From a bacterium (GTDB taxonomy: Bacteria; Verrucomicrobiota; Verrucomicrobiia; Limisphaerales; UBA11358), in contig JAKAFL010000016.1 in assembly GCA_021817945.1 (NCBI GenBank), positions 429-64,428 on the forward strand: 64,000 nucleotides of DNA, read 5' to 3'. The notes beneath the pieces are model-generated. The model searched no databases. It saw nothing but the letters and a program-made list of their open reading frames with translations, and was not told where the DNA came from. Positions 6,769-60,026 of the stretch are shown here, piece by piece. Position numbers and translations under genes: made by a program. Each line of letters begins with the position of its first letter. Within the stretch, counting starts at the first letter, position 1.

Positions 6769-6985
6769 GGAATTAAAAGGAACCAAAATCTCCGCCTGGC
6801 TTGTGGGCGGAAAAAGCCTGGAATTTGTTCTGCGACAAAGGTTTCACAAGCCTGGCTGAACCGTTTCAAGAACATGGGCACATATTTAAGCATGCGCAAT
6901 ATGCCATACAGGCAGGATGAATTCAAGAATGGAGCGGGAACTGCGGGGGTTTTTGACCCCACATCCCAAGGTGGCAACGATGGAA

Positions 6986-29918: not shown

Positions 29919-30370
29919 TCGAAAGTTTTTTCAAAACCTTGATCCACTTGTCATTCATGGTTTCGTGATGTTTGGAGTGTCTTGGTTTTCCGATTGTTTT
30001 TGGAAACCAAATCGAAGGCGGTGGATTTTCCATCAAAACAGGGTGGCTATCACCGAAAGGGGCCAATAATCCGGCTTGCTATCTGATGGATTTTCGGCTG
30101 ATGGCGCGGAAGGGGGGACACTTTTGGCTTTAATACTGATGAACAGGCTTGATTGGCTCGGTCAGCGCAGATGGGGATTTTTGCGAAAAACAAGGGGTAA
30201 TACGCAGTTTAGTGCGTGGCTTGTCCAAATAAGTGAAATTTTTCACAAACTTTTCTTGCGGGGTGTCCGCCAATGTATTAAATGTTTTCCGCGACAGGGA
30301 TTCGGAGCATTAGTCCTTGTGATTGTTTTAGCGATTTGCCGTGGTTTTTGCCGATTTATCGGCGTTTGAA

Positions 30371-31039
30371 ATGTCAGCAATTTTTCCAAAGTGGACAAAC
30401 TGGCTTCCGTTGGTGTTGGCCTTGGTCGCCGCACTGGCGGGGGGTGCCGTGACCGCGGGAGTGGCCGTTTACGTTACGCCCAAATATTATCGCGTGGGTT
30501 ACCAACCGGTCCAGCCGGTTCCTTTTTCCCACAAGGTGCATGCCGGCCAGTTGGGTCTGGATTGCCGCTATTGCCATAGCAACGTGGATAAATCCTGGGT
30601 GGCAAACATTCCCTCCGCCAGCACCTGCATGAATTGCCACAACCAGGTGCTCAAGGACGACCCACGGCTTGCCATAGTCCGCGAGAGCGCCACCAATAAC
30701 ACCCCAATCCCCTGGGTTCAGATTCACATCGTTCCTGATTACGTTTATTTCAATCATTCCGTCCACGTCAACCGCGGCATCAGTTGCGTGGAATGCCATG
30801 GCCGCGTGGATCAAATGGACACAGTCCGGCAGGCGAAATCCTTGAGCATGAGTTTCTGCCTGGATTGCCATCGCGACCCCGCTGCCCACATTCGTCCAGT
30901 GGACAAGGTCACCGACCTGGGTTGGCAATGGGATTCAGATCCCGCGAAGGCCGCCAAGATGCAGGAAATCAACGGGACAAAGTTTGTTCATGACTGGAAA
31001 GTGGAATCGCTTCAAAGTTGCTCAGCCTGCCATAGATGA
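30371..31039 (+). CDS. actA: Alternative complex III subunit ActA (pentahaem cytochrome c)
   Basis: Five CxxCH motifs are present (CRYCH, CMNCH, CVECH, CLDCH, CSACH) after an N-terminal TM anchor. The ATG is at 30371; the tracked GTG is at 30341. Confidence 0.85.
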   Translation: MSAIFPKWTNWLPLVLALVAALAGGAVTAGVAVYVTPKYYRVGYQPVQPVPFSHKVHAGQLGLDCRYCHSNVDKSWVANIPSASTCMNCHNQVLKDDPRLAIVRESATNNTPIPWVQIHIVPDYVYFNHSVHVNRGISCVECHGRVDQMDTVRQAKSLSMSFCLDCHRDPAAHIRPVDKVTDLGWQWDSDPAKAAKMQEINGTKFVHDWKVESLQSCSACHR

Positions 31040-34000: not shown

Positions 34001-34233
34001 TTTGTCCGGCGGGGGCGATTGTGTTTGGAGACGTGAGCGATCCAGAAAGCACGGTCTCCCGCCAAAAATTATCCCCGCTCAACTACTCGGTTTTGGGGGA
34101 CCTGCTGACCAAGCCGCGGACCACTTACTTGGCCCGGGTGCGCAACCCCAATCCGGCCATGCCTGATTACCATGCGCCTTACAGCACTGAAGAATACGAA
34201 AACGGTCTCTTGACCAGGAAAGGAACCAGCTAA
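31036..34233 (+). CDS. actB: Alternative complex III subunit ActB (molybdopterin-oxidoreductase-like plus 4Fe-4S ferredoxin module)
   Basis: A Tat signal is present (SRRHFLQIMSASFALAGIA). The large N-terminal domain belongs to the Mo-bisPGD family. The C-terminal Fe-S motifs are CVGCGTCVVACQSEN, CQQCESAPCESVCP, CIGTRYCSNNCPYKVRHFN and CQQVCPAGAIVFGD. Confidence 0.9.
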   Translation: MKTIRKPVPAPTTGRRHWRSLEELADTKEFKEWLHREFPSGASEMAEGQSRRHFLQIMSASFALAGIATLGAGCRRPVENLEPFGKQPSDYVFGASQYFATAMPLRCGAQPLVVKSYEGRPIKIEGNNLFPGGIGATDRYAQASILDLYDPDRARFYRKQGQKISKDEALSSLSALSSRFAGNQGQGLAFVMEQTASPSRDRLQAILASRYPQAEWYAADAIHSVIHQEAASKAFGQPVRPEFHFEKARVILSLDADFLGGEDDSVNHIRRFTSGRKPGETMNRLYVVESLFTLTGAAADHRLRLGASQVLGVASQILDQINGKGTASTPWVAECARDLAANPGAALVMAGQGQPLAVHLLANAINSALGAVGNTLLLLSAPAPSVHLKSFRDLKPSAVDTLVIVGANPAYHFNWTQKPQNVVRLGFYEDETSELSDLHIPSAHYLESWGDALASNGCKLAIQPLIQPLFDGMTELEFLARIAGETVTNPYSIVMSTFGDDGDSWKQFLFNGFVADAAPMPGNLSLALGVDELQSLAAGGGTQVPSADKLEVVFYRDAKLDDGRFANNGWMQELPDPITKMTWDNAVLMSRKTARALGVENGDLVEISLNGSAVTGPVWTQPGMADFSLGLALGYGRSRAGRVGSGVGFNAFTLFRGRYVESGATIRKTGSSYVLACTQDHWSMEGRPAVREANLDEFSRNPQFASEDFHGVEPPIVQSLYPNPLDEAKKTALQQWGMAVDLNACVGCGTCVVACQSENNIPIVGKDQVKRGREMHWMRIDRYYTSDPGRKHNPSLFDFNADENQSDPNQQFAEWIDDVQAVNQPMLCQQCESAPCESVCPVNATVHDEEGLNVMAYNRCIGTRYCSNNCPYKVRHFNFLDYNKRPLSELKGPMYSTTLTHKTNGEWDLLRWLKDPDIGMRTEAEWDLIKLSKNPDVTVRMRGVMEKCTYCTQRIEQAKIAQKSKAGGSGNVRLTEADGTIPKTACQQVCPAGAIVFGDVSDPESTVSRQKLSPLNYSVLGDLLTKPRTTYLARVRNPNPAMPDYHAPYSTEEYENGLLTRKGTS

Positions 34234-35672
34234 TGGCCGGCCCAGTTATTTCAGCGGAAGAAATCAAGCGATTGGCCCCCCCGGAGGAATTTAGAGCTTC
34301 CCCGATTGTGGAGGGGTCCAAGGGTTTGGGTTGGCTCACGGACCGGTTGTCTGCCTTTGCCGAGGCCAAGACCCCGATCTGGTGGTGGGTTGCCTTCCTT
34401 CCTGCAGTGTTCTGCGCCGCCGTGGTCTTCCCCATCTGCCTGTTCTATCAGGTTTTCACCGGGGTGGGGGTCTGGGGTAACAACCATCCCGTGATGTGGG
34501 GGCTGGACATTGTCAACTTCATCTGGTGGGTGGGCGTGGCGCATGCCGGCACCTTGATTTCAGCCCTGCTTTTCCTGACCAAGCAAGGCTGGAGAACCAC
34601 AATCGGTCGCATGGCCGAGGCGATGACTGTCTTTTCAGTGGCCATGGCCGGATTGTATCCCGCCATTCACGTGGGTCGCGCCTGGTTTGATTGGTTCATG
34701 TTTCCCATCCCCAATTCCAACGGCCTTTGGCCCCAGTTCCGTTCACCGCTCATGTGGGATGTCTTCGCCGTCAACACCTATCTGGTGGTTTCCACTCTTT
34801 TTTGGTTCATGGGCATGATTCCGGATTTTGCCGTTCTTCGCGACCGTTCGAAGACCCGGTTGCGCAAGGCCATCTTCAGCGCGCTGGCCATGGGTTGGAC
34901 TGGTTCAGCGCGGCATTGGCATAACTACGAAAAAGCCTACACCGTTTTCGCTGGATTGTGCACGCTGCTGGTTTTCACCGTTAGTTCCATCGTCGGTTTG
35001 GATTTCTGCACAGCCCAAATCGCGGGGTGGCATGCCACCATTTTCCCGCTTTATTTTGTGATTGGCGCCGTTTTCTGCGGCTTCGGCATGATGCTCGTTC
35101 TGCTGATTTCCCTTCGCAAATTGTGCCATCTCGAGGATATCATCACCAAAAGCCACATTGACAAGGTGGCCAAGCTGACACTCGTCAGCGGTCTGGTTAT
35201 TGCCTACATCTATTTGATGGAGTTTTTCATTGCCTGGTATAGTGGCGACCCCTATGAACGCTGGGTCTTTGGGCACCGGCTGTTTGGCCATACTTACTGT
35301 GTCATGGGCTGGATTCTCATTGGCGTGAACGTGGTCATGACCCAGTTGTTATGGATAAAAAAGGTTCGTTCCAACCTGGTCCTTTTGTTTATCATCGGCG
35401 TCCTGATCAATATCGGAATGTGGACGGAACGGTTTGTAATCGTAGTGGGATCCTTGTACCAGGATTTCCTGCCGGCCAATTGGGGCAAATATCTTCCCAC
35501 GCGCTGGGATATTGGTTTGTACATAGGCACGCTGGGTGCATTCTTCACGTTGTACCTGCTTTTCGTAAAGTTCCTGCCCATGATAGCAATTTCCGAGGTC
35601 AAAGGTGCCATGCCAGAGGCTGACCCACACCACCCCAGTGGCGGCGCCTTGAAGGAGGCCCATCATGAATGA
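34233..35672 (+). CDS. actC: Alternative complex III subunit ActC (NrfD/PsrC-like quinol-interacting membrane subunit)
   Basis: It is a polytopic membrane protein of NrfD type (WGLDIVNFIWWVGVAHAGTLISA...). Its start overlaps the actB stop by 1 nt. Confidence 0.85.
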   Translation: MAGPVISAEEIKRLAPPEEFRASPIVEGSKGLGWLTDRLSAFAEAKTPIWWWVAFLPAVFCAAVVFPICLFYQVFTGVGVWGNNHPVMWGLDIVNFIWWVGVAHAGTLISALLFLTKQGWRTTIGRMAEAMTVFSVAMAGLYPAIHVGRAWFDWFMFPIPNSNGLWPQFRSPLMWDVFAVNTYLVVSTLFWFMGMIPDFAVLRDRSKTRLRKAIFSALAMGWTGSARHWHNYEKAYTVFAGLCTLLVFTVSSIVGLDFCTAQIAGWHATIFPLYFVIGAVFCGFGMMLVLLISLRKLCHLEDIITKSHIDKVAKLTLVSGLVIAYIYLMEFFIAWYSGDPYERWVFGHRLFGHTYCVMGWILIGVNVVMTQLLWIKKVRSNLVLLFIIGVLINIGMWTERFVIVVGSLYQDFLPANWGKYLPTRWDIGLYIGTLGAFFTLYLLFVKFLPMIAISEVKGAMPEADPHHPSGGALKEAHHE

Positions 35673-36204
35673 TAAACTCTACGGCATCATGGCCGAATTC
35701 GATTCGCCCGCTGCGGTTCTGCGCGCGGCCAAGGCGGTCCGGGACGCTGGCTACCGCCGGTGGGATGTTTTTTCGCCCTTTCCTGTTCATGGCATGGACA
35801 AGGTGATGGGCTTGGGGAATTCTTTGGTGGGTTGGGTGTCTCTTCTCCTTGGCGCAGGCGCTTTCATGTCGGTGGTGGGGCTGATCTGGTACGCGAATGC
35901 CTTTGATTATCCATTGATTGTCGGCGGCAAACCCATGTTCAGCGAACCCATGACCTTTGTTCCTTCCTATATCATGTTGATCATGGGAGGCGCGGTGGGT
36001 TCATTGGTGGGGATGCTGGCATTTAACCAACTCCCGCGCTTGAATCATCCATTGCTCAGCAAACCACGTTTTGAGCTGGCATCGCGTGATAAGTTTGTGC
36101 TCGTGATTGGGGTGAAGGATGACAAGTTCTGCCTCACCAAAACCCGGCAATTGCTTGAAAAAATTGGCGGAAACGCCGTGACTGTTGTGGAGGACGAGGA
36201 CTGA
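35665..36204 (+). CDS. actD: Alternative complex III subunit ActD (DUF3341)
   Basis: The N-terminus LYGIMAEFDSPAAVLRAAKAVRDAGYRRWDVFSPFPVHGMD is followed by two TM helices, which is the typical ActD layout. Confidence 0.8.
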   Translation: MNDKLYGIMAEFDSPAAVLRAAKAVRDAGYRRWDVFSPFPVHGMDKVMGLGNSLVGWVSLLLGAGAFMSVVGLIWYANAFDYPLIVGGKPMFSEPMTFVPSYIMLIMGGAVGSLVGMLAFNQLPRLNHPLLSKPRFELASRDKFVLVIGVKDDKFCLTKTRQLLEKIGGNAVTVVEDED

Positions 36205-36881
36205 TGCGCTACGCCATTTCCATCCTTTTGATAGGGGCCTTCATCGGCGGGGCTGTTGTGGGCATGCTGGGTTTGCCGGGCCGCATTTCCAGCCAGCCGC
36301 CGGTGGAGATTTATTCAGACCGTTACTTCCCAGGCATGGACCGCCAGCCCAAATTGCGGCCCCAAAAGCCCTTCGAGTTTTTCGCCAACGGCGTGAGTTC
36401 GCAGTTGCCCCCGCCGGGCACAGTGGCCCGTTCACCCGGAGTCGCCACCCTCAGCGGGGTAGTTCACCGTTTTGAGGATAATCCTTTCAACACCGGAATG
36501 GTCACCGGCTCGACCAATTTTATTGATGTGAACCCCATGCCAATGACTCAAGCGTTGCTGGAACGCGGACGGCAACGGTTTGATATTTACTGCGCCCCCT
36601 GCCATGGCAGGCTCGGCGATGGCAATGGCATCACCAAGGCCATAGGCGACATGCCAGCGGTGGCCAACCTGCACGATGCCCGGATCATTTCCATGCCCGA
36701 CGGGGAAATCTTCAATACTGTCACCCACGGCAAGGGTCTGATGGGCGCCTATGGTCCCATTGTCCCCGCCGAGGACCGATGGGCTGTGATTGCCTATTTG
36801 CGGGCCCTGCAATTGAGCGATCTTGGGACGACGAACGACCTTGATGCCAGCCAGCAGGCCCTCCTGAACCACACGCCATGA
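36204..36881 (+). CDS. actE: Alternative complex III subunit ActE (monohaem cytochrome c)
   Basis: It has an N-terminal anchor and a single CAPCHGRLGDG haem motif, with a distal Met region (GKGLMGAYG). Confidence 0.8.
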   Translation: MRYAISILLIGAFIGGAVVGMLGLPGRISSQPPVEIYSDRYFPGMDRQPKLRPQKPFEFFANGVSSQLPPPGTVARSPGVATLSGVVHRFEDNPFNTGMVTGSTNFIDVNPMPMTQALLERGRQRFDIYCAPCHGRLGDGNGITKAIGDMPAVANLHDARIISMPDGEIFNTVTHGKGLMGAYGPIVPAEDRWAVIAYLRALQLSDLGTTNDLDASQQALLNHTP

Positions 36882-38137
36882 GTCATTCCCACCATCATCA
36901 TTCCGCCACGCCGCGATTGGATTTGTCCGGCTGGGGTTTTCTTCCGTCATTCCTCATGACGGCGGGAGGTTTGCTTTCCGTGCTGGGCCTGCTTGTCTCG
37001 TGGAAGCATGGTGTTTTGTTTGAATTCGGTTGCTCATGGCTGCTGGCATTCATGTTTTTTTACAGCCTTGCCATTGGTGCCCTTTTCCTGGTGATGATTC
37101 ACCATCTTTCCGGCGCTGCATGGTCCCTGGGACCCCGCCGGTTTTGTGAACACATTGCCTCGCTTCTTGGGTGGCCGCTTGTGCTCATGTTTATTCCCGT
37201 GGGCTTGTTTGGTCATCAGATTTACCAGTGGATGAACTTGGACCCCGCCACCAACAATCTGGTTGCAGCCAAGGCGCCGGTTTTCACCATTCCCGGTTTT
37301 TGGATCACCTCCGGCATCTTTTTTGCATTGCTGTGGTTCCTTTCATCGAGGCTATCATCGCTTTCCATCGAGCAGGATCAGACTGGCGCTCCCTCCTGCA
37401 CCCGGAAAATGAATTTTCATTCGGGCTGGGGCATTGTCGCTCTTTCTCTTCTGCTCACCTTTTCCAGTGTGCTGTGGATGAAAGCGGTTCAATACCAGTT
37501 TTTCTCCTGTATTTATGGCGTGTATTTCTTCTCCGATTGCGCATGGATCGCCCTGGCAACGGTCTATGTGGTTTCCGTGATTCTCTATCGGCAGGGCGCC
37601 TTGTCCCGGGTTTTGCACGAGCACTGTTTCCAAAACATTGCGCTTTTGTTGTTTGGATTCACCTTGTTCTCGGCTTATACGGAGTTTGCGCAGTATTTCG
37701 TGGTCTGGAATGCCAACATGCCTGAGGAAACATTTTGGTACCTGATTCGTGAGCATGGCAATTGGTGGACGCTGGGGTTGGTTCTTATTTTCGGCCATTT
37801 CTTTGTTCCCTTTTTTGTCCTGCTTCCCCTGAAAATCAAAACTAATTTCAAGGTCATTGTTCCGGTGTGCATATTGGTGGCTTTCATGCATGCGCTGGAC
37901 CTCGCCTTCAATATATTCCCTGCTCATCGTTCTGAGGGTTATCATTTGCGCTGGATCTGGCTGCCTGTTGGGGTTTTCATGTTCATGGGCGGTTTTCTGG
38001 CCAATGTTTTCCTGATGCGGTTTCACTCTCACGCGGCCTATCCCCAAAGGGATCCACGCCTGCTGGAGGCCATGGGCATGAACCCGAATTCAATCAATGA
38101 CCTGGCTCCCAACACTCTCGCCAACTCTCAGCCATGA
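36878..38137 (+). CDS. actF: Alternative complex III subunit ActF (second NrfD-like membrane subunit)
   Basis: It is a polytopic membrane protein in the position of ActF, in the canonical actABCDEF order, with a 4-nt overlap on each neighbour. Confidence 0.75.
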   Translation: MSHSHHHHSATPRLDLSGWGFLPSFLMTAGGLLSVLGLLVSWKHGVLFEFGCSWLLAFMFFYSLAIGALFLVMIHHLSGAAWSLGPRRFCEHIASLLGWPLVLMFIPVGLFGHQIYQWMNLDPATNNLVAAKAPVFTIPGFWITSGIFFALLWFLSSRLSSLSIEQDQTGAPSCTRKMNFHSGWGIVALSLLLTFSSVLWMKAVQYQFFSCIYGVYFFSDCAWIALATVYVVSVILYRQGALSRVLHEHCFQNIALLLFGFTLFSAYTEFAQYFVVWNANMPEETFWYLIREHGNWWTLGLVLIFGHFFVPFFVLLPLKIKTNFKVIVPVCILVAFMHALDLAFNIFPAHRSEGYHLRWIWLPVGVFMFMGGFLANVFLMRFHSHAAYPQRDPRLLEAMGMNPNSINDLAPNTLANSQP

Positions 38138-38493
38138 ATCCTGATAATATCAATCGCGCTTCGGGTGCTGTCATCGGTTTGATCGCAGGAAGCGGCTTGT
38201 TTTTGCTGGCTGCTGTGGCCCTTCACGCCTTGGCGCCTGCTCCGGATGTTGATTCCCTCTACGCTGCCAAACGATCGGCATCGCTCGAAAAAATCAGGTC
38301 CACAGAAAATGCCGGCTTAAATTCTCCCGCTTGGATTGATCCCACACGGGGAATTGTTCGTTTGCCTATTCAAACCGCGATGCAGATTCTGGTTTCGGAA
38401 GGCCAGGACGGCGCGGCGGCACGGCAGGACCTCCTGGGCCGGGAGAAAAAAGCTACGGCCCCGGTGGCCGCCCAACCCAATGCTTTCGAATGA
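38134..38493 (+). CDS. Small single-pass membrane protein, operon-internal (function unknown)
   Basis: It has one TM helix (AVIGLIAGSGLFLLAAVALHAL). It is translationally coupled on both sides by 4-nt ATGA overlaps with actF and the CcoN-like gene. Confidence 0.55.
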   Translation: MNPDNINRASGAVIGLIAGSGLFLLAAVALHALAPAPDVDSLYAAKRSASLEKIRSTENAGLNSPAWIDPTRGIVRLPIQTAMQILVSEGQDGAAARQDLLGREKKATAPVAAQPNAFE

Positions 38494-39899
38494 ACTCAAA
38501 CGATATTAAGCCAGTGCCAACCAGCCAGGTTGATGCCTCCTGCCGATTGCCTTTGCTGGCGCTTTTCGGGGGTTCAGCCCTTTGGCTTGTTTTGGGGTTG
38601 TTGCTGGAGTTGACCGCCTCACTCCAGTTTCATGCTCCGGGTATTTTTTCCTGCTGCCCTTGGATGACTTACGGCCGGGTTTTGCCTGCGGCAAATGACT
38701 TGCTGATTTATGGTTTTGCCATTCCCACCGGCCTGGGTGTCATGCTCTGGGTGGTTGCTAGGCTGGGCCAGGTGGAACTCGTTCTGCCGCTGGTTTCCTT
38801 TGCCGGGGCTAATGTCTGGCATTTGGGCGTGTTGGTGGGCACACTGGGCGTTTTATCCGGCCATTCCACAGGTTATGCGTGGTTTGAATATCCCAGGGTG
38901 GCGGCAGCCCTGCTTTTGCCCGCTTTCATGTTGGTGGCCGTCTCCGCCGTGGCCGCCATCGGCCAGCGCCGGATCAGGGATTTGTACCCATCGCATTGGT
39001 TTTTTCTCGCTTCCTTGCTCTGGTTTCCTTGGATTTATTCCACAGCGTTTGTTTTCCTTCTGGTCTGGCCCGTTCGCGGTGTTGCCCAAGCGGTGATTGA
39101 TTGGTGGTTTGCCTCCAATTTAATCGTGGTCTGGCTCTCCTTGGTGGGCTTGGGGATCTCTTTCTACCTCCTGCCCAAGTTCTCAGGTCGTCCGCTGGAA
39201 GGCCGGTTCACTGCCTTGTTTGCTTTCGTCACTCTCTTGTTGTTCGGTTCCTGGCTGGGGATCCCCCAAGGCGCTCCAGTGCCTTTCTGGCTTCCCGCCA
39301 GCAGCATATTGGCGGGACTGCTCTTCAGTGTTCCTGTCTTGGTGGTGGCCATGGTTTGTGCTCGCACGGTTTGCGGAGCCCCCGCTGGTTGCAAAGGCGG
39401 CCCTTTTTGCCAGGTCAAATTCGGCACCGCAGCTTTTGTCCTTTCCGGTATTTGGACCGTGGCCCAAGCCTGCCCGCAATTTGCCCACTCCACCTTGCTT
39501 ACAACGTTTGATCTTGGAAGAATTCACTGGCAGATTTTCGGCTTCTTTGCCATCACGGTGATGGGTGGTTTTTATGAGCTGTTCCCCCGTGTGATGGCCT
39601 CTCCGCTGCCCCTTCCTGGGTTGCCGCGGTTTCAACACTGGCTTTTTATTTCCGGCGCCTTGGTTTTGGCGGCGTCCCTGGCGGTGGCAGGGTTGCAGCA
39701 GCAGTCCGCCGATTTTATCCTGGCCAGGATACTCCCCGCCTTTCGAGCCAGTTCCCTGGGTTGGACCTTGCTGTTTATTGGCAGCCTCATTTTTGCGCTT
39801 AATGTATTCATTATGACCATCGTTTGGGTGGTGGGAATTATTAAAACGGTCATTGGCGCCATCAAGGCGCCATTGGCCGTCGCGGAGGTTAAACCATGA
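38490..39899 (+). CDS. cbb3-type cytochrome oxidase subunit I (CcoN)-like membrane protein, apparently lacking the canonical haem/CuB His ligands
   Basis: It is 469 aa with about 12 TM helices and is collinear with CcoN. PWMTYGRVLPAANDLLIYGF corresponds to canonical PW..FGRLRPLHTNAVIF. DWWFASNLI corresponds to canonical WWYGHNAV. LLPKFSGRPL corresponds to canonical FVPK...RP. Confidence 0.7.
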   Translation: MNSNDIKPVPTSQVDASCRLPLLALFGGSALWLVLGLLLELTASLQFHAPGIFSCCPWMTYGRVLPAANDLLIYGFAIPTGLGVMLWVVARLGQVELVLPLVSFAGANVWHLGVLVGTLGVLSGHSTGYAWFEYPRVAAALLLPAFMLVAVSAVAAIGQRRIRDLYPSHWFFLASLLWFPWIYSTAFVFLLVWPVRGVAQAVIDWWFASNLIVVWLSLVGLGISFYLLPKFSGRPLEGRFTALFAFVTLLLFGSWLGIPQGAPVPFWLPASSILAGLLFSVPVLVVAMVCARTVCGAPAGCKGGPFCQVKFGTAAFVLSGIWTVAQACPQFAHSTLLTTFDLGRIHWQIFGFFAITVMGGFYELFPRVMASPLPLPGLPRFQHWLFISGALVLAASLAVAGLQQQSADFILARILPAFRASSLGWTLLFIGSLIFALNVFIMTIVWVVGIIKTVIGAIKAPLAVAEVKP

Positions 39900-40696
39900 A
39901 GAACGGTTTCTCAGTTTTTTGCGTGGCATTGGCGGCGCTCGGCTTGTCATGGATTGGGTTGGTCCTGGGACCGGTCCTCCAATTGGGCCATGAATCGCTC
40001 ACCACGGTCCTGAATTCCACGGACCCTTACCCCATCCAGCCTGCGGGCGCGGCAACCTTGGGCTTGCAGGTTTACAAAGCCAACGGTTGCGCCGCCTGCC
40101 ACACTGAACAGGTGCAACAGGATGGTGTGGTTTGCAACGTGGTTTTGTCCGCGCCGGGCCTGCACCCGGATGATGTTTCCAATCTCCTCTCCCAGCTTGA
40201 CTTGAATGGTTTGACCGACCAGGAGGCATCCATCGCAGCGGCAAAGATCGCCGCCGTGGGCGGTAAAACGGAAATACGCGTGGCTTCCACGGGTGGTGAC
40301 ATGAATCGTGGGTGGGGCTTGCGCCGCAGCGTCTCCGCTGATTACCTTTACGACCAGCCGGTTCAGTTGGGATCTGTACGCATTGGGCCTGATTTGGCCG
40401 ATATCGGAACCCGCCAGACCGATGCAAAAGCCATTCTGGCCCATTTGTATGCGCCTCAGTCCTGCACTGCGGGTTCGTTGATGCCTTCCTTTAAATTCCT
40501 CTTCGTAACCCGTAAGGTTCAAGGATCACCTTCTCCCGATGCTTTGGCATTGCCGCAGGCATTTGCCCCGCCGGATGGCTTTGAGATTGTACCAACCCAG
40601 GATGCGAAGAATTTAGTGGCATACCTCATGAATCTGCACGTTAATGTGCCCCTTTACGAGGCGCCCTTCACACCCTCTGTCGCCGCAAACAAATGA
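39896..40696 (+). CDS. cbb3-type oxidase subunit II (CcoO)-like monohaem cytochrome c with an internal insertion
   Basis: It has an N-terminal TM helix, the haem motif GCAACHTEQV, and CcoO-like RIGPDLADIGTR and HLYAPQS...GSLMPSF. About 55-60 extra residues lie between the haem motif and the conserved core. Confidence 0.65.
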   Translation: MKNGFSVFCVALAALGLSWIGLVLGPVLQLGHESLTTVLNSTDPYPIQPAGAATLGLQVYKANGCAACHTEQVQQDGVVCNVVLSAPGLHPDDVSNLLSQLDLNGLTDQEASIAAAKIAAVGGKTEIRVASTGGDMNRGWGLRRSVSADYLYDQPVQLGSVRIGPDLADIGTRQTDAKAILAHLYAPQSCTAGSLMPSFKFLFVTRKVQGSPSPDALALPQAFAPPDGFEIVPTQDAKNLVAYLMNLHVNVPLYEAPFTPSVAANK

Positions 40697-41298
40697 AGGA
40701 TCCAGCCCAGTCATCAACTGATCACCAGGAAAACCCACCCTCGGCTTCGGTTTCCACCGTGCCGCTCTGGATATTTGCCCTGACGCTGCTCCTCATTTTT
40801 CTGGGCACCGTTTATTTTGACCACCACAGCGGATGGTTCAATCCGCAGATTTACTCCCCATTTGAAAATGAAGCCCAGTTGGAGGCATACCAGCCCAAGT
40901 CAGGCTCGGCGGCGATGATCGCCCGGGGCAAGCAGGTTTACGAGCAAATCTGCGGCATTTGCCACGGCGTGGATGGCATGGGTAAGCCGGGTCAGGCTCC
41001 GCCCTTGGCTGGCTCGGAGTGGGTGAATGCTTCCAGCTACAACCGGCTGGCTCATATTCCTTTGATGGGCGTCAATGGCGATATCACGGTTGAAGGAAAA
41101 GATTGGAACATGGCCATGGCTGCCATGGGCGCATCTCTCAGCGATGCCGACCTGGCGGCGGTTCTGAGTTATATTCGGAATTCCTGGGGCAATAAAAGCG
41201 CCATGGTCACCCCGGAAGATGTGGCTGGGGTGCGTGCGGCAATTGGGAAAAACCCAGTTCCGATGTCTGCGCAACAGTTGGAGAAAATGCCCCAATAA
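40693..41298 (+). CDS. Membrane-anchored class I monohaem cytochrome c (CcoP-like or electron donor)
   Basis: It has a TM anchor (VPLWIFALTLLLIFLGTVYF) and a single CGICHGVDGMG motif, with a LSYIRNSWGN tail typical of class I c-type domains. Confidence 0.75.
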   Translation: MKDPAQSSTDHQENPPSASVSTVPLWIFALTLLLIFLGTVYFDHHSGWFNPQIYSPFENEAQLEAYQPKSGSAAMIARGKQVYEQICGICHGVDGMGKPGQAPPLAGSEWVNASSYNRLAHIPLMGVNGDITVEGKDWNMAMAAMGASLSDADLAAVLSYIRNSWGNKSAMVTPEDVAGVRAAIGKNPVPMSAQQLEKMPQ

Positions 41299-50521: not shown

Positions 50522-50560
50522 ACGAAATAAACAAGGCGCGAAACATGGAGTTCGCGCCTT
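50522..50560 (-). terminator. Intrinsic terminator after the thrC-like / sulfur-carrier / NIL operon
   Basis: A perfect 10-bp stem (aaggcgcgaa / ttcgcgcctt) with an 8-nt loop is followed on the minus strand by gtttatttcg. It lies 29 nt after the NIL gene stop. Confidence 0.6.
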
Positions 50561-50588
50561 GGAGCGTTTGATTTTTGCTGGAAAAATT

Positions 50589-50885
50589 TCAGCCGGCAAT
50601 GACGCCGATTTCGACGGGTTCGACGTTGACTTTGTTTTTTTCGAGCCAGCGGATGGCCGCATCCACTTCAGCGCGCACGCCGGAGAGTTCGAGGCAGACA
50701 ATGCCGATCTCATCGGTGACGGTGGCTTGGCGGATGTTGGTGATGACTTTGAATTGATGCCCCACTTCCCAGATGAAGGGTTTTTTAATGAGCCTGGGAG
50801 GATACATCAACCACAGCCTTTGCCGGATTTCGGCTGTTGCGGACGTGTTTTTGCTCCTCACTTTGGATTTTTTGACGGCAGCCAT
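50589..50885 (-). CDS. NIL domain protein
   Basis: At 98 aa, the C-terminal roughly 75 aa (PFIWEVGHQFKVITNIRQATVTDEIGIVCLELSGVRAEVDAAIRWLEKNKVNVEPVE) fit the NIL (MetN C-terminal-like) domain pattern. It lies 5 nt downstream of the sulfur-carrier gene. Confidence 0.6.
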   Translation of the reverse strand: MAAVKKSKVRSKNTSATAEIRQRLWLMYPPRLIKKPFIWEVGHQFKVITNIRQATVTDEIGIVCLELSGVRAEVDAAIRWLEKNKVNVEPVEIGVIAG

Positions 50886-50890
50886 GGTGT

Positions 50891-51166
50891 TTAGCCTCCT
50901 GCAATAGCGGGAATGATGCTGATTTCATCGCCCTCTTTGAGGGCAGTTTCGCGGTTTTCCTTGAAACGGATGTCCTCTTCGTTCACGTAGATGTTCACGA
51001 AGCGCCGGACTTCACCTTTTTCATCCAGGAGCCTTTCCTGGATTCCTGGAAAGCGTGTTTGCAATTCCAGGATGGCCTGGCCCACGGTGAGGGCGTTGAC
51101 TTCAATTAATTCCTCATTGTTGGTCAATTTGCGCAAGGGCGTGGGTATTCTTACTTTTTTTGGCAT
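50891..51166 (-). CDS. MoaD/ThiS-family sulfur carrier protein (CysO/MetO-like)
   Basis: It is 91 aa with a beta-grasp-like pattern and ends exactly in ...IIPAIAGG. The free C-terminal Gly-Gly is the site needed for thiocarboxylation. Confidence 0.75.
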   Translation of the reverse strand: MPKKVRIPTPLRKLTNNEELIEVNALTVGQAILELQTRFPGIQERLLDEKGEVRRFVNIYVNEEDIRFKENRETALKEGDEISIIPAIAGG

Positions 51167-51230
51167 ATCAATCCTTATAGTGTCGTGATGTTTCGTGGGA
51201 ATCGAGTTTTTTTGATTTTGTTGAGGTCAT

Positions 51231-52487
51231 TCAAGCCCGGGCGGATTCCTCCTGGGTGAGGAGGGCTTCAAATTCACGCAGGCTGGGTTTGATTTCACGG
51301 GGTTTTCCGCAATGGCCGGACACGGCATCAAGTGTCTTAAGCCCATTGCCGGTAATGCAGATCACGGCGGAATCCTCTTTGGGAATCTTGCCGCACTCAA
51401 TCAACTTTTTGGCCGCGCCCAGGGTTACGCCTCCGGCTGTTTCGGCAAAAATGCCCTCGGTTTCGGCCAGCAGCCGTATGGCATCGCGAATTTCATCGTC
51501 ATTCACGTCCTCGGCGGCGGCATTGGTTTCGCGCATGACCTTCAACGCATAAAAGCCATCGGCGGGAGTTCCGATCGCCAGTGATTTGGCGATGGTGTCC
51601 GGCTTGACGGGTTTGAAGAAATCAAGGCCGGCTTTTTGGGCGGTCGAGATGGGGGAACAACCGGTTGCCTGTGCTCCGTAAACCTTGGGATGGGATTCCG
51701 GTATCAGTCCCACTTTGACCAGTTCCTGGTAGCCCTTGTGGATTTTGGTGAGCAGGGAGCCGGAGGCCATGGGTATGATGGTGTGCTGTGGCGCTTTCCA
51801 GCCCAGTTGCTCTGCGATTTCGTAAGCCATGCTCTTGCTGCCCTCCGCATAGTAGGGCCTCATGTTGACGTTCACAAATGCCCAGCCAAACTTGCCAGCA
51901 ATCTCCGCGCACAGACGGTTGACTTCGTCATAATGGCCCCTGATGCCAATCACGCTGGCACCGTAGATAAGGGAGTTTAGAATTTTACCCTGTTCCAGGT
52001 CGGATGGGATGAATACATATGACTTCAGACCTGCACTGGCGGCGTTGGCAGCCACGGAATTGGCCAGGTTGCCGGTGGAGGCGCAGGCCACGGTTTCAAA
52101 ACCCAGTTCCTTGGCGCGGCTCAAGGCAACGCTGACGACCCGGTCCTTGAAAGAAAGCGTGGGGTAATTTACCGCGTCATTCTTGATCCACAATTCACGG
52201 ATTCCGAGCCGCCGTGCAAGACGGTCTGCCTTGATCAGGGGCGTGAAACCCACCTGCCTGCCCACGGTGGGTTCTTTTTCGATGGGCAGGAGTTCTCGGT
52301 AACGCCACATGGAGGCGGGCCGCGATTCGATGGCCGCGCGGGTCAGGGATTTTTTAATGCGGTCATAATCGTAGGCCACCTCAAGGGGGCCAAAATCAAA
52401 TTCACACACATGAGTGGCCGCCAACGGATATTCCCGCCCGCATTCGCGGCACTTGAGTGCCTTCATGTACCGGTGTTGTTCGCTCAT
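51231..52487 (-). CDS. thrC: Threonine synthase family PLP enzyme (ThrC-like; candidate O-phosphohomoserine-dependent homocysteine synthase, MetM-like)
   Basis: An N-terminal zinc-ribbon-like CRECGREY...HVC is present. The PLP-lysine region is YPTLSFKDR, and the body belongs to the ThrC family (GNLANSVAA, ASGSLLTK). It is preceded by a SAM-I riboswitch. Confidence 0.8.
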   Translation of the reverse strand: MSEQHRYMKALKCRECGREYPLAATHVCEFDFGPLEVAYDYDRIKKSLTRAAIESRPASMWRYRELLPIEKEPTVGRQVGFTPLIKADRLARRLGIRELWIKNDAVNYPTLSFKDRVVSVALSRAKELGFETVACASTGNLANSVAANAASAGLKSYVFIPSDLEQGKILNSLIYGASVIGIRGHYDEVNRLCAEIAGKFGWAFVNVNMRPYYAEGSKSMAYEIAEQLGWKAPQHTIIPMASGSLLTKIHKGYQELVKVGLIPESHPKVYGAQATGCSPISTAQKAGLDFFKPVKPDTIAKSLAIGTPADGFYALKVMRETNAAAEDVNDDEIRDAIRLLAETEGIFAETAGGVTLGAAKKLIECGKIPKEDSAVICITGNGLKTLDAVSGHCGKPREIKPSLREFEALLTQEESARA

Positions 52488-52573
52488 AATCTGTCAGTCA
52501 TTGCATTCAGGTCGTTTTCGATCTCTATTTTCTGCAATCATTTTTTCGATTGTTTTTGCCGGTTCGAACCAAC

Positions 52574-52603
52574 AAAAAAACCCCTCCCATGGCGGAGAAG
52601 GGT
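52574..52603 (-). terminator. Riboswitch expression-platform terminator
   Basis: On the minus strand the sequence CCCTTCTCC-GCCAT-GGGAGGGG is followed by TTTTTTTG. The 5' arm CCTTCTC is complementary to GAGAAGG/GAGAAG, which overlaps the 3' strand of the aptamer P1 helix (ATGAGAAG). That complementarity would allow an antiterminator alternative. Confidence 0.75.
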
Positions 52604-52624
52604 CAGAATAGCTGACAGTGTGTC

Positions 52625-52745
52625 TTCTCATTTTTCCCGGGCTAATGGCGCCCAAGCTGGATTTGGCACCTGACATTGATACCTGAAATCAATCGGTTGC
52701 CGTGGCGTCACAGGGCCAGTCCCTCGACCACTCGTCATGAGTCCG
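52625..52745 (-). promoter_or_regulatory. SAM-I (S-box) riboswitch aptamer
   Basis: The minus strand reads CTCATGACGAGTGGTCGAGGGACTGGCCCTGTGACGCCACGGCAACC...CAGGTGCCAAATCCAGC...GGGAAAAATGAG. It contains the hallmark S-box blocks GAGGGA-TGGCCC, GCAACC and GGTGC-AAATCC, and the P1 pairing CTCAT/ATGAG. Confidence 0.85.
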
Positions 52746-53081
52746 CCTCTCAGCGGATGCCAACAAAGTGAGGCTAACTGATCTCCCTGTCAAATGCTTT
52801 TTGCCAGTCCACCAAAAGCGAAGTCAAAGCGCATGAGGGGAAAGGCTCAAACCAAGCATGACTTTTACAATTTGTCATAGCCGTATGAAAACAATTGAGA
52901 AAGTCACTACTGCAATGGTATGCGTTTGCAATTGATATTATCGTTAAAGCTTTGAGATTTTGATTTTTTGGAATCCGTCAAAATTTCTATTAGTAGAGCT
53001 ATTAAAAATAATATGCACAATATGTAGTGGTTTTTCCTTTACATTTGGCCATGAGTTTGGTTAAGTGGGTTTAACACGATT

Positions 53082-56894: not shown

Positions 56895-59800
56895 CTAAGG
56901 CGAAACCGTACGGTAAAACTGCTGCTGGGAGTGTGATTGGGGGAACGAAATGGTCACCGTGGCATCGGCCGCATTGGTGATGCTTCCCGGGAGAATCTCC
57001 CAGGCATTCCCAGCCAGGTTGGAACTGGATTCCACGTGATAAGGAAATCCAGGCGTGGTGGCATAGGTGAGAAAGACCATGCCATTGAGCAAATCCACCT
57101 TGGGGATCAACTGGCTGGGAGGAGGGGGGCTGGAAAGAACACTGAAAGCCTGGCTGAGGACTGGTTTCAAGGCAATTCCCGTGGCATTGGTGGTGAAGGC
57201 GAGGAGTTGGTTTCCAAACCCGGCCAAATTGACGGCCAAATTATGAAAAGCCGCCACGCCATTGCCTGCATTGGTGCCGATATCTTGCGCGTTTGATCCC
57301 AAAAGCAAGCCGCTGGAATTGGTCAGGGCTAATTGCACCACCAGATTTCCCGGCAAATTCAGGGATGTGGCATGACCCAGGGCGTCCACGGCTTGCACCA
57401 CAGGTTGGTGGGTCATGGCGAGACCCGCCACGGCACCTGCGGGTTGAGCGGCGAATGCCAGCGCGGTGGCGGGGCCCAGCACGATAAATGGCAGGCTTTG
57501 AGCCGAAACGCTGCTCCCCACAGTATCCATGGCATCCAGAACGTGAGCGCCCGGGACACTTATGGTCAGATCATTGAAATGCGCCAAACCTGCCTGGTCC
57601 GTCACCCGCGAGAGCGTGCCGGACAGTCCCCCAAGGGAATCCCCTAAAACCACGTTGATTTCTGCATTCGAGACAGGAAGGCTGTTTGCATCCAGGGCTT
57701 CCACCAGGATTTCCGGGCTGATAACCATCCCCTGCGCGGTTGTGGATGGCTGTTGAATGAATGCCAGGGATTGAACCGGTGTCCATGGCAAAAAATAAGC
57801 AGTTTCACTGATTGGACTGTTCATGGCAACCTGTGCGGGGTTGTTGGTGCCGGAATAGGAACCGGAACCAGCGCCAATCCAGTTCTCAAAATTGTATCCA
57901 TTGGAAGCCACGGCACTCAAGTAGAGCACTGTTCCAGGATTGGTCCATTGGCTTTGTGGAAAAACCTGTCCCCCTATTGACGGATTCATGGTCAGAAGGT
58001 ACTGGGTGGCGTAGGCCGCTGTGTCAGTGAACGACATGGATGGCGTCAGCAGATGCGATTGTCCGCCGCCATCACTCCATCCATTCCAGAGGTACTGGGT
58101 GCCGGAATTTTGCTGGGGTGATGATGCCAGAAGCCAATGACTGGTCCCGGCGGGCCATAAAAATGTCCGGGGTGATGAACCATTTGTTCCATCCACGTTC
58201 AAGGCCAGGTTCGGCGGGCTGGATTGGAACGTGACGGCCACGGAATTGGATTGGAACAGGAGGGAAAACTGTGAGGATGCATTCAAGTATTCAGCCAGGG
58301 CGTTGTTCATGAGAGATAATCCGCCTGTTGCATCGTTGCGTACCCACAGTCCATTGCGCCCGCTTGCACCAATACCATAATTTGGAATGGAGACGTTGGC
58401 AGCCACTGCATTGGACAAAACACCGTTGCCGCCAATGATGCTCATGCCATCAGAAATGCTATTGGTGATCAAAACATCCCCGAGAACCAGGCCGTGAATG
58501 CCGCCTGCATAGGAATCCATGCAGAGCTGCAAGGCAGCCCTCCATTGGTAACCGGGGTCATAGCCGCCGCAGCGGACCAGATTGCAACGTAATATGGAAG
58601 TGATGCCGGAAAATGTGTTGGCGCCAACGGGAAAGGTGGTGCTGGCCAGGATGCCGCAGCCGTAGGGAATATCCTGAAACAGGCAGTCCTGAATCGAATT
58701 GCTGATTCCACCGTAAATGGCGCCACCGTTGGCCAGGAAAGGAAGCATTCCAGTACAATGAGTCACCAGGTTGAATCCCGGCACATAGGTCTGCTGTGTG
58801 TAGGTTGCCGGCCAGATGGGAAAGCAATCATCCCCGGTGCCTCGAGCCGTGCAGTTTGTCACGATGGTGGATTCCATTCCCACCGCCAGGTTGCAACCAT
58901 CCGCAATGGTGTCCCTGAAACGGCAGCCATCCACGATCAATCCCTTTGAATTGGTGAGCCATGCGCCTGTTTTGGTGTGTTCCACCCAGATGCGTGAGAG
59001 GGTGGAACCGGTGCCATAAGAGCCCCCCAGGCCATCATTGGGTTCACTGTCATTGCGATAATTCAGAAAGCCTTGAATGGAAAAATCAGCGAGGTGGATA
59101 TTGCTGCCGTTTCCATGAACAAAAACCCGCGCTGAGGGATTGGAGTTGTACACTGAAGCATTGCCCACAAGGCGGGTAAACCACATTCCCGCTCCCTGAA
59201 CGATGGCGCCCGTGGGCAGGTTTAGGGTGCCACTAACAAGGTACTGGCCCGGCGGAAGCCATGCAGCCACGCCCTTTGAAACCGCCGCATTAATGCAATT
59301 TTGCACGGAAGCCGTTGCATCGGATGCCCCGTTGGTGGAAGCCCCATAAGCCAGAACGGACAGGGATCCTGCCGGTTGCGGGAGGGGCGTTCCAGCGATC
59401 TCGAGGTCCACCAGATCTATGTCATACCAGGCAGCGTTGTCTCCGGCATCCATTTGCAGCCGGATCAAATCCCCGGTCTTGATGGAAAATCCGGTGGCCC
59501 GGACCTCATCAAAAAAATTCCTGGGACTGCCCGCCGAGGGTTCGTTGGTAAATGGATAATTCCCGTAGAGCCAGCTATAGCGCGAGGTCATGGGTAAAAC
59601 AGCCGCTAAAACGCCGTTGGTATAGAGGCTCAAGTTGTAATCCGCACCACTGCCATTCGCGGTGTCTGGCACGCTGTAACGCACCACCATGGAATCAGCG
59701 GCTGCCTGGGCGGTGAATTCCACGTATTGACCGGTGCCATTGAGTTCCATGCATTTCCTGCCTGACGCTTCGGACGCAACCAGGTTGGGGCCGTATTGCG

Positions 59801-60026
59801 GACCCAGGAGCGTGGCTCCGCCGGAAGTCATGTTTTCTGCTTCATAGGTGATCCACGGAACGGCTGCGCCCGGGATAATGTTGCCCATGGCCGTGCCAAC
59901 CCAATGGGTACAAGCCAAAATCAGCACGATCCATACTTTATCGGGCCAAAACACAGCCAATGCGATTCCCGGTGCTCTAATACGAACGCCGGAACTGGCA
60001 TGGGTTTGGGAAAAAAACCAAGACAT
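56895..60026 (-). CDS. Large secreted right-handed beta-helix (pectate-lyase-superfamily / glycoside-hydrolase-like) protein with InlB-B-type and Ig-like repeats
   Basis: An N-terminal hydrophobic signal is followed by a carbohydrate-binding-like module (ITYEAENMTSGGATLLGPQYG...VVRYSVPD). Repeated beta-helix turns are visible (IVDGCRFRDTIADGCNL...TNCTARGTGDDCF). InlB-B-like repeats (GYNFENWIGAGSGSYSG) and several Ig-like repeats follow. The C-terminus is ...QQFYRTVSP. Confidence 0.6.
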   Translation of the reverse strand: MSWFFSQTHASSGVRIRAPGIALAVFWPDKVWIVLILACTHWVGTAMGNIIPGAAVPWITYEAENMTSGGATLLGPQYGPNLVASEASGRKCMELNGTGQYVEFTAQAAADSMVVRYSVPDTANGSGADYNLSLYTNGVLAAVLPMTSRYSWLYGNYPFTNEPSAGSPRNFFDEVRATGFSIKTGDLIRLQMDAGDNAAWYDIDLVDLEIAGTPLPQPAGSLSVLAYGASTNGASDATASVQNCINAAVSKGVAAWLPPGQYLVSGTLNLPTGAIVQGAGMWFTRLVGNASVYNSNPSARVFVHGNGSNIHLADFSIQGFLNYRNDSEPNDGLGGSYGTGSTLSRIWVEHTKTGAWLTNSKGLIVDGCRFRDTIADGCNLAVGMESTIVTNCTARGTGDDCFPIWPATYTQQTYVPGFNLVTHCTGMLPFLANGGAIYGGISNSIQDCLFQDIPYGCGILASTTFPVGANTFSGITSILRCNLVRCGGYDPGYQWRAALQLCMDSYAGGIHGLVLGDVLITNSISDGMSIIGGNGVLSNAVAANVSIPNYGIGASGRNGLWVRNDATGGLSLMNNALAEYLNASSQFSLLFQSNSVAVTFQSSPPNLALNVDGTNGSSPRTFLWPAGTSHWLLASSPQQNSGTQYLWNGWSDGGGQSHLLTPSMSFTDTAAYATQYLLTMNPSIGGQVFPQSQWTNPGTVLYLSAVASNGYNFENWIGAGSGSYSGTNNPAQVAMNSPISETAYFLPWTPVQSLAFIQQPSTTAQGMVISPEILVEALDANSLPVSNAEINVVLGDSLGGLSGTLSRVTDQAGLAHFNDLTISVPGAHVLDAMDTVGSSVSAQSLPFIVLGPATALAFAAQPAGAVAGLAMTHQPVVQAVDALGHATSLNLPGNLVVQLALTNSSGLLLGSNAQDIGTNAGNGVAAFHNLAVNLAGFGNQLLAFTTNATGIALKPVLSQAFSVLSSPPPPSQLIPKVDLLNGMVFLTYATTPGFPYHVESSSNLAGNAWEILPGSITNAADATVTISFPQSHSQQQFYRTVSP

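Follow-up and report, generated by a model that had tools for sequence, protein, structure and literature searches.

Pathways of the CysM/CysO/Mec kind combine a phosphorylated hydroxy-amino acid, a protein thiocarboxylate and a fold-type-II pyridoxal 5'-phosphate (PLP) enzyme. A homocysteine pathway with S-adenosylmethionine (SAM) riboswitch control, MetM/MetO, has been described in Streptomyces (Hasebe et al. 2024, as cited in PMC12172450 and GapMind 2026). As summarised in those sources, S. albulus has a ThrC-homologous PLP enzyme (MetM), a carrier of about 91 amino acids (aa) ending in Gly-Gly (MetO) encoded next to it, and a SAM riboswitch upstream, and the E1-type enzyme (MoeZ in Streptomyces) is encoded elsewhere. 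The pathway components given by GapMind 2026 are MetO, Mec, MoeZ and MetM, with no NIL component, and MetM is noted there as often misannotated as threonine synthase. Here we describe an operon in a 64-kb stretch of DNA (64,000 nucleotides of contig JAKAFL010000016.1; hereafter, the window) from a bacterium of the Limisphaerales (Verrucomicrobiota). The operon lies on the minus strand and consists of a SAM-I riboswitch, a 418-aa ThrC homologue, a 91-aa Gly-Gly carrier, a 98-aa NIL-domain protein and a terminator, in the following arrangement:

52625..52743, minus strand: SAM-I (S-box) aptamer (RF00162)
52572..52604, minus strand: intrinsic terminator of the expression platform, hairpin plus T-run at 52604..52579 (hairpin/T-run search)
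51231..52487, minus strand: MetM-like ThrC-family PLP enzyme, 418 aa, with an N-terminal zinc-ribbon-like extension (PALP, TIGR00260)
50891..51166, minus strand: MetO/CysO-type sulfur carrier, 91 aa, β-grasp, with Gly-Gly just before the stop codon (ThiS, PF02597)
50589..50885, minus strand: stand-alone NIL-domain protein, 98 aa (NIL, PF09383)
50532..50561, minus strand: operon-end intrinsic terminator, an 11-bp stem with 7 G-C pairs followed by TTTATTT

Together, riboswitch, enzyme and carrier appear to extend the MetM/MetO system to a new phylum, with the same gene order as in S. albulus, and the NIL gene is a new part. NIL domains are otherwise found as the C2 domain of MetN and in MA1822, the NIL-ferredoxin subunit of the L-aspartate-semialdehyde sulfurtransferase of the DUF39 pathway (PMC12068725; PMC5764234). 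The domain has been stated to bind methionine and to regulate activity, and product inhibition of the methanogen homocysteine enzyme through NIL has been hypothesised (PMC12068725).

For comparison, a NIL alignment scan with one genome per species gave at least 535 loci, of which the best 80 all came from metagenome-assembled genomes of Verrucomicrobiota subdivision 3 (Limisphaerales). The Verrucomicrobiota locus counts given below rest on these best 80 of at least 535 loci; loci of other phyla were reached by protein look-ups.

The SAM-I leader and the ThrC-like enzyme

The preliminary description of the window, made from the DNA letters, had named a SAM-I aptamer with a terminator/antiterminator pair ahead of a ThrC-family gene, and each of these parts was recovered. 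The RF00162 covariance model matched 52743..52625 (minus strand) over its full length (model positions 1–108) with 72.7 bits, compared with a gathering score of 44.4, and an E-value of 4.2e-15; it was the sole Rfam family matched in the window. Directly 3' of the aptamer lies a G+C-rich hairpin with a T-run (52604..52579), the 5' arm of which (CUUCUC) is the exact complement of the 3' strand of the P1 helix (GAGAAG, at about 52626–52631). The alternative helix between these two strands has a predicted energy of −9.0 kcal/mol when the 3' arm of the terminator is left out of the folding. This layout, on evidence that is computational throughout, is that of the usual transcriptional "off" switch.

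The leader is conserved among the relatives. Of the Verrucomicrobiota loci, 63 could be tested, having a complete enzyme gene and sufficient sequence ahead of it, and all 63 have an S-box about 80–200 nt upstream of this orthologous gene; Rfam confirmed it in L001–L003 with 74–77 bits. The suggestion that SAM control places the operon in methionine rather than threonine synthesis is supported by this constancy. The terminator (GCCCCUUCUC...GGGGC followed by a U-run) passed an automated hairpin and U-run test in 59 of 64 related leaders, and 4 of the 5 that failed show it when read by eye. Compensatory changes preserve the pairing between P1 and the terminator arm, as GAGACA/UGUCUC in L007 and GAGAUG/CGUCUC in L035 and L079. 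The minimum-free-energy fold of the whole leader was no more stable than those of shuffled sequences (z = −0.32); thermodynamic folding alone is therefore uninformative, and the evidence for the riboswitch lies in the covariance model and in conservation. Ahead of the riboswitch, no promoter was recognised in a sigma-70 scan; a TTGACA (52793..52788) is present there without a good −10 element.

The enzyme belongs to the ThrC family, as had been claimed, with scores of 241 bits for PALP, 285 bits for TIGR00260 (thrC) and 300.7 bits for PRK08197, the last just below its cutoff of 303. Its SFKDR lysine motif and ASTGN motif align with those of solved threonine synthases, which identifies a fold-type-II PLP enzyme with the catalytic lysine motif. 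Its identity to the crystallised ThrCs of Aquifex, Bacillus, Thermus and Mycobacterium is 36–39%, and that to the Arabidopsis enzyme is 30%; the four bacterial ThrCs are 57–62% identical among themselves. By contrast, it is 52–68% identical to ThrC homologues encoded next to carriers in Chloroflexota (L083), Thermodesulfobacteriota/Deltaproteobacteria (L084 and L085) and a marine lineage (L087). The carrier-linked enzymes of Verrucomicrobiota, Chloroflexota, Thermodesulfobacteriota and Actinomycetota are 49–74% identical to one another, 34–39% identical to the solved bacterial ThrCs and 27–31% identical to the plant enzyme. In a neighbour-joining tree, the carrier-linked enzymes and the crystallised ThrCs form two clean clades.

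Three features mark the carrier-linked group: (i) an N-terminal zinc-ribbon-like extension (CxxC...C) of about 55 aa; (ii) an insertion, which reads TAQKAGLDFFKPV in the window enzyme; and (iii) clade-specific motifs, read from the alignment rather than mapped on a structure, namely PTLSFKDRV in place of PTGSFKDRG, NVNMRPYYAEG in place of NSVNPYRIEG, and ASGSL in place of GNAGN. The zinc-ribbon-like motif (residues 13–24; 52416–52451) reads CRECG...HVCEFDFGPLEV in Verrucomicrobiota and CEFCFG or CQECFG in other phyla. The Verrucomicrobiota enzymes differ here from MetM in that the fourth cysteine of the motif is an aspartate, and the enzymes of this clade may bind metal differently or not at all.

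The grouping was tested with a Nonomuraea protein as proxy for the characterised S. albulus MetM. In Nonomuraea gerenzanensis (L091), an S-box (68.7 bits) is followed by an enzyme 57% identical to that of the window and then by a carrier of 91 aa that shares 48% identity with its window counterpart; this is the layout reported for Streptomyces metM-metO. A separate canonical ThrC, 65% identical to that of M. tuberculosis, is encoded about 9 Mb from this locus. The preliminary MetM/MetO assignment thus gains support by proxy, from the grouping with carrier-linked homologues and from the coexistence of both enzyme types in Nonomuraea. We propose that the ThrC homologue is something other than a standard threonine synthase and that it fits MetM, the O-phosphohomoserine-dependent homocysteine synthase. 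The Nonomuraea sequence, NZ_LT559118.1, is titled "Nonomuraea gerenzanensis plasmid I" in PLSDB and is sparsely annotated there; it is evidently the chromosome, because it is 11.85 Mb long and carries housekeeping genes, including those for GroEL and the canonical ThrC.

The sulfur carrier and its NIL-domain partner

The carrier had been described as a MoaD/ThiS-fold protein ending in Gly-Gly, and it matches ThiS (PF02597) with 63.8 bits and moaD_arch with 51.9 bits (cutoff 49.5); its C-terminus reads ...IPAIAGG, directly before the stop codon. Its identity to M. tuberculosis CysO is 44%, and the carrier domain of a homologous fusion protein, modelled by AlphaFold, superimposes on CysO structures with a TM-score of 0.93 at 48% identity. 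By these comparisons the carrier is of the CysO type, and the presumed pathway follows the CysM/CysO/Mec logic. The locus differs from the mycobacterial system in that (i) the enzyme is of the ThrC and not the CysK/CysM type, with O-phosphohomoserine as its presumed substrate, and (ii) the operon has SAM riboswitch control and a NIL protein, and no Mec/JAMM gene. Because the carrier ends exactly at Gly-Gly, it should mature without a protease, which is a further difference from MetM/MetO. The operon had been said to encode no E1 enzyme, and none was found by tblastn across the 64-kb window or by Pfam scans of 30 of its long ORFs. The E1 must therefore be encoded elsewhere, as in Streptomyces; E1 genes do occur in the related clusters L084, L085 and L090.

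The 98-aa protein matches NIL (PF09383) with 36.5 bits (cutoff 24), in keeping with the preliminary assignment, and NIL is its only domain. A Lys/Ser-rich N-terminal tail precedes the β-α-β-β-α-β fold of the domain. The start codon lies 5 nt past the carrier stop codon, and the codons for the terminal Ala-Gly-Gly of the carrier (GCA GGA GGC, 50891–50899) contain AGGAGG, which resembles a strong Shine-Dalgarno sequence and lies 8 nt upstream of the NIL ATG (50885). The position of AGGAGG within the end of the carrier gene and near this ATG suggests translational coupling; that is to say, the functionally essential C-terminus of the carrier also encodes the likely ribosome-binding site of the NIL gene. 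Stop-codon read-through as a source of a carrier–NIL fusion in the window was considered and rejected, since the NIL open reading frame (ORF) is in another frame (8-nt offset).

Homology links the NIL protein to the MetN C2 domain: the family profile matches that domain in 3dhx (E-value 6e-11), and a Foldseek search with the homologous fusion model retrieved MetN C2 domains (3tui, 3dhw and 3dhx) at 29–30% identity. Asn50, in the TNIR motif of the NIL protein, aligns with N295 of MetN, a position that is alanine in the PDB chain 6cvl; the N295A exchange is reported to abolish methionine trans-inhibition of MetNI. The aligned asparagine is invariant in the close NIL family and in the carrier–NIL fusions described below. 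By contrast with MetN, the window protein is free-standing, has no ATP-binding cassette (ABC) ATPase domain and is partnered with a sulfur-carrier system instead of a transporter. Its single cysteine (Cys64) is not conserved, and no cysteine or histidine is invariant in the family. A role as a persulfide carrier was accordingly rejected, and from this conservation pattern the NIL protein appears to be neither a catalyst nor a sulfur relay.

MA1822 resembles the window protein in that its NIL domain is attached to a homocysteine-forming system (PMC12068725; PMC5764234). It differs in three respects: the window protein has neither a 4Fe-4S ferredoxin domain nor a conserved cysteine; the 30 window ORFs scanned include no DUF39/COG1900 partner; and the presumed substrates are O-phosphohomoserine and a protein thiocarboxylate, not aspartate semialdehyde. 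A HMMER search with the NIL protein returned 483 representative clusters, of which the best 150 include 8 carrier–NIL and 2 JAMM–NIL fusions and none with a ferredoxin (Fer4) or ABC ATPase (ABC_tran) domain. The absence of these two domains from the best 150 clusters sets this NIL subfamily apart from MetN and from the methanogen NIL-ferredoxin proteins.

In about 80 Verrucomicrobiota species, the NIL gene comes straight after the carrier gene, as it does in all loci of this phylum whose sequence extends far enough to judge, and the genes flanking these units vary between loci. Six species (L012, L024, L045, L051, L058 and L061) have the carrier–NIL pair (carrier at about 7650–7990 and NIL at 8001–8290 of the respective loci) with no S-box and no MetM-like gene within 8 kb upstream; in L012, a long ORF lies upstream. 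In seven loci, a two-gene cassette separates the enzyme gene from the carrier gene (L020, 3883–4460; L021, 2823–3497; L022, 7019–7668; L031, 6984–7606; L033, 5575–6197; L053, 7074–7639; L054, 6939–7561). On inspection, the cassettes inside the riboswitch operon look like toxin–antitoxin genes, with antitoxin-like and PIN-like, or RelE/HigB-like and helix-turn-helix-like, products. The idea that the gaps between enzyme and carrier hide an E1 or JAMM gene was rejected on the same inspection; besides such cassettes, they hold one unrelated 223-aa ORF.

Fusions join the two proteins in other genomes. A search with one fusion gave at least 120 protein clusters with both Pfam domains. In an alignment of 58 of them, Ala-Gly-Gly is invariant, and a short basic linker, itself variable, connects it to the NIL domain; the Lys/Ser-rich tail of the window protein resembles this linker. 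The AlphaFold model of a carrier–NIL fusion has two confident domains (predicted local distance difference test score, pLDDT, of 90) joined by an AGG linker of low confidence (pLDDT below 50), which fits an exposed cleavage site in the model; the predicted TM-score (pTM) is 0.53. Two apparent PALP–NIL fusions, P0261 and P0146, are probably artefactual; one lies on a contig of 2x coverage and has a translated spacer rich in Arg, and the other is a chimera.

A solved protein of comparable architecture may be the T. thermophilus "MoaD related protein" (PDB 1v8c, 168 aa, structural genomics), in which a CysO/MoaD-like domain ending in ...PPVAGG is followed by a second domain. Foldseek aligned it with the carrier–NIL fusion model over about 170 columns (E-value 6e-9), and the fusion profile matched it with an E-value of 1.6e-13; its C-terminal domain was not detected by the NIL sequence profile at E-values up to 10. 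The overall root mean square deviation from the fusion model is 14 Å, so the two domains are arranged differently; any kinship of 1v8c to the carrier–NIL architecture would be distant.

Clusters from other phyla place the NIL domain in wider company. (i) In L083 (Limnocylindrales, Chloroflexota), a MetM-like enzyme gene is followed by a carrier–NIL fusion gene. (ii) L084 encodes a ThiF/MoeB-type E1, a CysK-like enzyme, a MetM-like enzyme, a ThiI-like protein, TusA, a carrier–NIL fusion and a JAMM protease, with a homoserine dehydrogenase gene nearby. (iii) In L085 (3117–13000), an S-box (92.8 bits) is followed 3' by about 10 same-strand genes, in the order small ThiS, CysK-like, ThiF, MetM-like, sulfite-reductase-like with Fer4, TusA, carrier–NIL fusion, PALP, ThiF and radical-SAM; this candidate S-box regulon is unusually large and looks like a complete carrier-based system for cysteine and homocysteine assimilation. 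(iv) L090 (Nitrospinota) encodes a CysK-like enzyme, a MetM-like enzyme, ThiS, ThiF, two DsrE proteins, PALP, TusA, a tandem NIL–NIL protein and Rrf2; such tandem relatives fit a dimer as the working unit, a further likeness to the MetN C2 domain. MetM-like enzymes thus stand beside CysK-like enzymes, ThiF/MoeB-type E1s and TusA, DsrE or JAMM genes in L084, L085 and L090. (v) In L087 and L088, the order is enzyme–NIL–carrier, and in L089, the enzyme and NIL genes are adjacent. (vi) L086 (5378–8714, on a 5.9-Mb contig) has genes for Rrf2, a CysK-like enzyme, a 3'-phosphoadenosine 5'-phosphosulfate (PAPS) reductase, a 95-aa ThiS and a 237-aa JAMM–NIL fusion, and no MetM-like gene; judged by its gene content, it is a CysO/CysM/Mec-like cysteine cluster with the NIL domain on the protease.

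Across these loci, the linkage between carrier and NIL is the tightest, and the gene contexts tie NIL to CysO-type carrier systems generally and not to MetM specifically. In the preliminary description, NIL was put forward as an unreported addition to MetM/MetO. The novelty of the association stands, in that GapMind 2026 has no such component and no link between a NIL domain and a sulfur carrier was found in the literature searched, which left out most subscription journals and Hasebe et al. 2024; the restriction to MetM does not. The NIL gene is apparently a widespread third component of carrier systems, so far undescribed as such.

Proposed mechanism and competing explanations

We consider the locus to be a SAM-repressed MetM/MetO-type homocysteine operon, with a probability of about 0.75. 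On the conserved leader structure, abundant SAM would allow the aptamer to hold P1 closed, the terminator would form and transcription would stop ahead of the genes; when SAM is scarce, the P1 3' strand would pair with the 5' arm of the terminator and permit read-through. By homology with the published system, the Gly-Gly end of the carrier would be adenylated and then thiocarboxylated by an E1-type enzyme encoded elsewhere, and the ThrC-like PLP enzyme would exchange the phosphate of O-phosphohomoserine for the thiocarboxylate sulfur, which gives homocysteine. The NIL protein would be a non-catalytic accessory partner of the carrier whose ligand, like that of the MetN C2 domain, is most likely methionine or a similar sulfur-containing amino acid, and it would add protein-level feedback on carrier use beside the RNA-level control by SAM. 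In the fused forms, a JAMM protease would have to remove the NIL domain behind Gly-Gly before the carrier can be charged. For the NIL protein as a ligand-sensing accessory partner of the carrier system, our confidence is tentative and below even odds. A broader version, in which NIL is a previously unrecognised general ligand-sensing module of CysO/MetO-type pathways that reports methionine, cysteine or homocysteine to the carrier, is possible but somewhat doubtful; the module would then act as a free partner, as a C-terminal cap removable by JAMM or as a targeting domain on the protease.

Several observations weigh against this reading. The NCBIfam model scores the enzyme as a threonine synthase (TIGR00260, above cutoff), and orthology to S. 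albulus MetM rests on the Nonomuraea proxy and gene context. Methionine binding by the NIL protein rests on one aligned asparagine, and because NIL also occurs in the cysteine-type cluster L086, its ligand is possibly not methionine. The AlphaFold model of the fusion contains no confident contact between carrier and NIL (pTM 0.53). Furthermore, Nonomuraea has no NIL gene at its locus or anywhere in NZ_LT559118.1, and the Streptomyces MetM/MetO pair was reportedly reconstituted without a third protein; for these two reasons, the NIL protein is probably dispensable for the chemistry.

The alternatives differ mainly in what they ask of the NIL protein. It might be a structural partner or chaperone that shields the carrier tail or the thiocarboxylate, and that serves in fusions as a removable cap, comparable to the MoaD–MoaE fusion MoaX that is cut after Gly-Gly, with no small molecule involved. 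The closeness of NIL to the carrier instead of the enzyme would be expected under such a role, as would the invariant AGG ahead of a variable basic linker that is predicted to be flexible and exposed, the JAMM gene 3' of the fusion gene in L084 and the existence of JAMM–NIL fusions. However, the asparagine equivalent to that of the MetN methionine site is conserved, although a pure scaffold would not need it, the lack of a confident carrier–NIL interface in the model counts here as well, and the fusions of L083 and L085 have no JAMM gene nearby. We regard this explanation as possible, at odds of roughly one in three or slightly worse. If NIL instead bound the PLP enzyme in trans as a regulatory subunit conferring methionine feedback, in the manner of the ACT-type domains of IlvA or the small subunit of acetolactate synthase, its ACT-like and MetN C2-like fold would be accounted for, and so would the gene orders in L087–L089 and the weak Pfam similarity of the tandem NIL protein to the acetolactate synthase small subunit. 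Such a role is unlikely, given that six Verrucomicrobiota species keep the carrier–NIL pair with no enzyme gene within 8 kb, that NIL occurs in a CysK-like cluster without a MetM-like gene, and that the confirmed fusions join NIL to a carrier or to JAMM, whereas the PALP–NIL cases look artefactual.

The identity of the enzyme itself could also be questioned. A threonine synthase, or a ThrC paralogue with another sulfur product (for example, cysteine from O-phosphoserine, as with CysM), would leave the carrier and NIL to serve a different pathway. The enzyme scores above the cutoff of the NCBIfam thrC model, shares the SFKDR lysine motif and ASTGN with ThrC, and has no other thrC beside it within the window; a cyanobacterial homologue has been reported with threonine synthase and deaminase activities (PMC12172450). 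Against this, the S-box in all 63 relatives points to methionine/SAM metabolism, the enzyme falls in a clade apart from the solved ThrCs, and Nonomuraea holds both this enzyme type and a canonical ThrC. The cysteine-synthase variant is further opposed by the separate CysK-like enzymes that co-occur in L084, L085 and L090. We consider any such reassignment very improbable, and a MetM/MetO-type homocysteine operon remains the preferred interpretation.

Genomic surroundings and significance

The genes next to the operon are unrelated to it, with DsbD and a peroxiredoxin-like protein encoded on one flank and SMC on the other; a 1043-aa ORF (56895–60026, minus strand) adjoins the SMC gene. Searches of the 64-kb window with tblastn found no E1, JAMM, ThiI-like, TusA, CysK-like, homoserine dehydrogenase or second ThrC gene. 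A Pfam scan of 30 long window ORFs gave unrelated functions and likewise no E1, JAMM, ThiI, TusA, homoserine dehydrogenase or ThrC; the ORFs at 5488–6786 (minus strand), 36878–38137 (plus strand) and 3285–4118 (plus strand) had no Pfam match. A respiratory block occupies 30341–41298, with a multihaem cytochrome c, a large Fe-S protein, an NrfD-like membrane protein and ActD, which resembles alternative complex III; haem-copper oxidase subunits of the cbb3 type (COX1, a FixO-like protein and cytochrome c) come next in the same block. A tblastn search of the plasmid collection with the NIL protein gave no match.

The first description of MetM/MetO dates from 2024, and genome annotations still commonly label MetM a threonine synthase. 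In Verrucomicrobiota subdivision 3, a large and mostly uncultured clade of soil and freshwater, the system is probably the riboswitch-controlled route to homocysteine. With related clusters in Chloroflexota, Thermodesulfobacteriota and Nitrospinota, a third conserved component is present in many lineages, and practical rules for genome annotation and for the prediction of methionine auxotrophy follow from these results. The carrier–NIL and JAMM–NIL fusions are classic evidence of a functional link, and they offer a hypothesis that can be tested directly for a domain that, outside MetN, has only a conjectured role. The core system was already known; the NIL partner and its fusions are a concrete lead on how sulfur-carrier pathways are regulated. 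If NIL senses methionine, the operon would combine control by SAM at the RNA level with control by methionine at the protein level, and the fused forms would represent a bacterial ubiquitin-like protein activated by proteolysis under metabolic control. Were NIL a general module of these pathways, carrier processing resembling that of ubiquitin precursors would be coupled to amino-acid sensing, in parallel with the SAM riboswitch.

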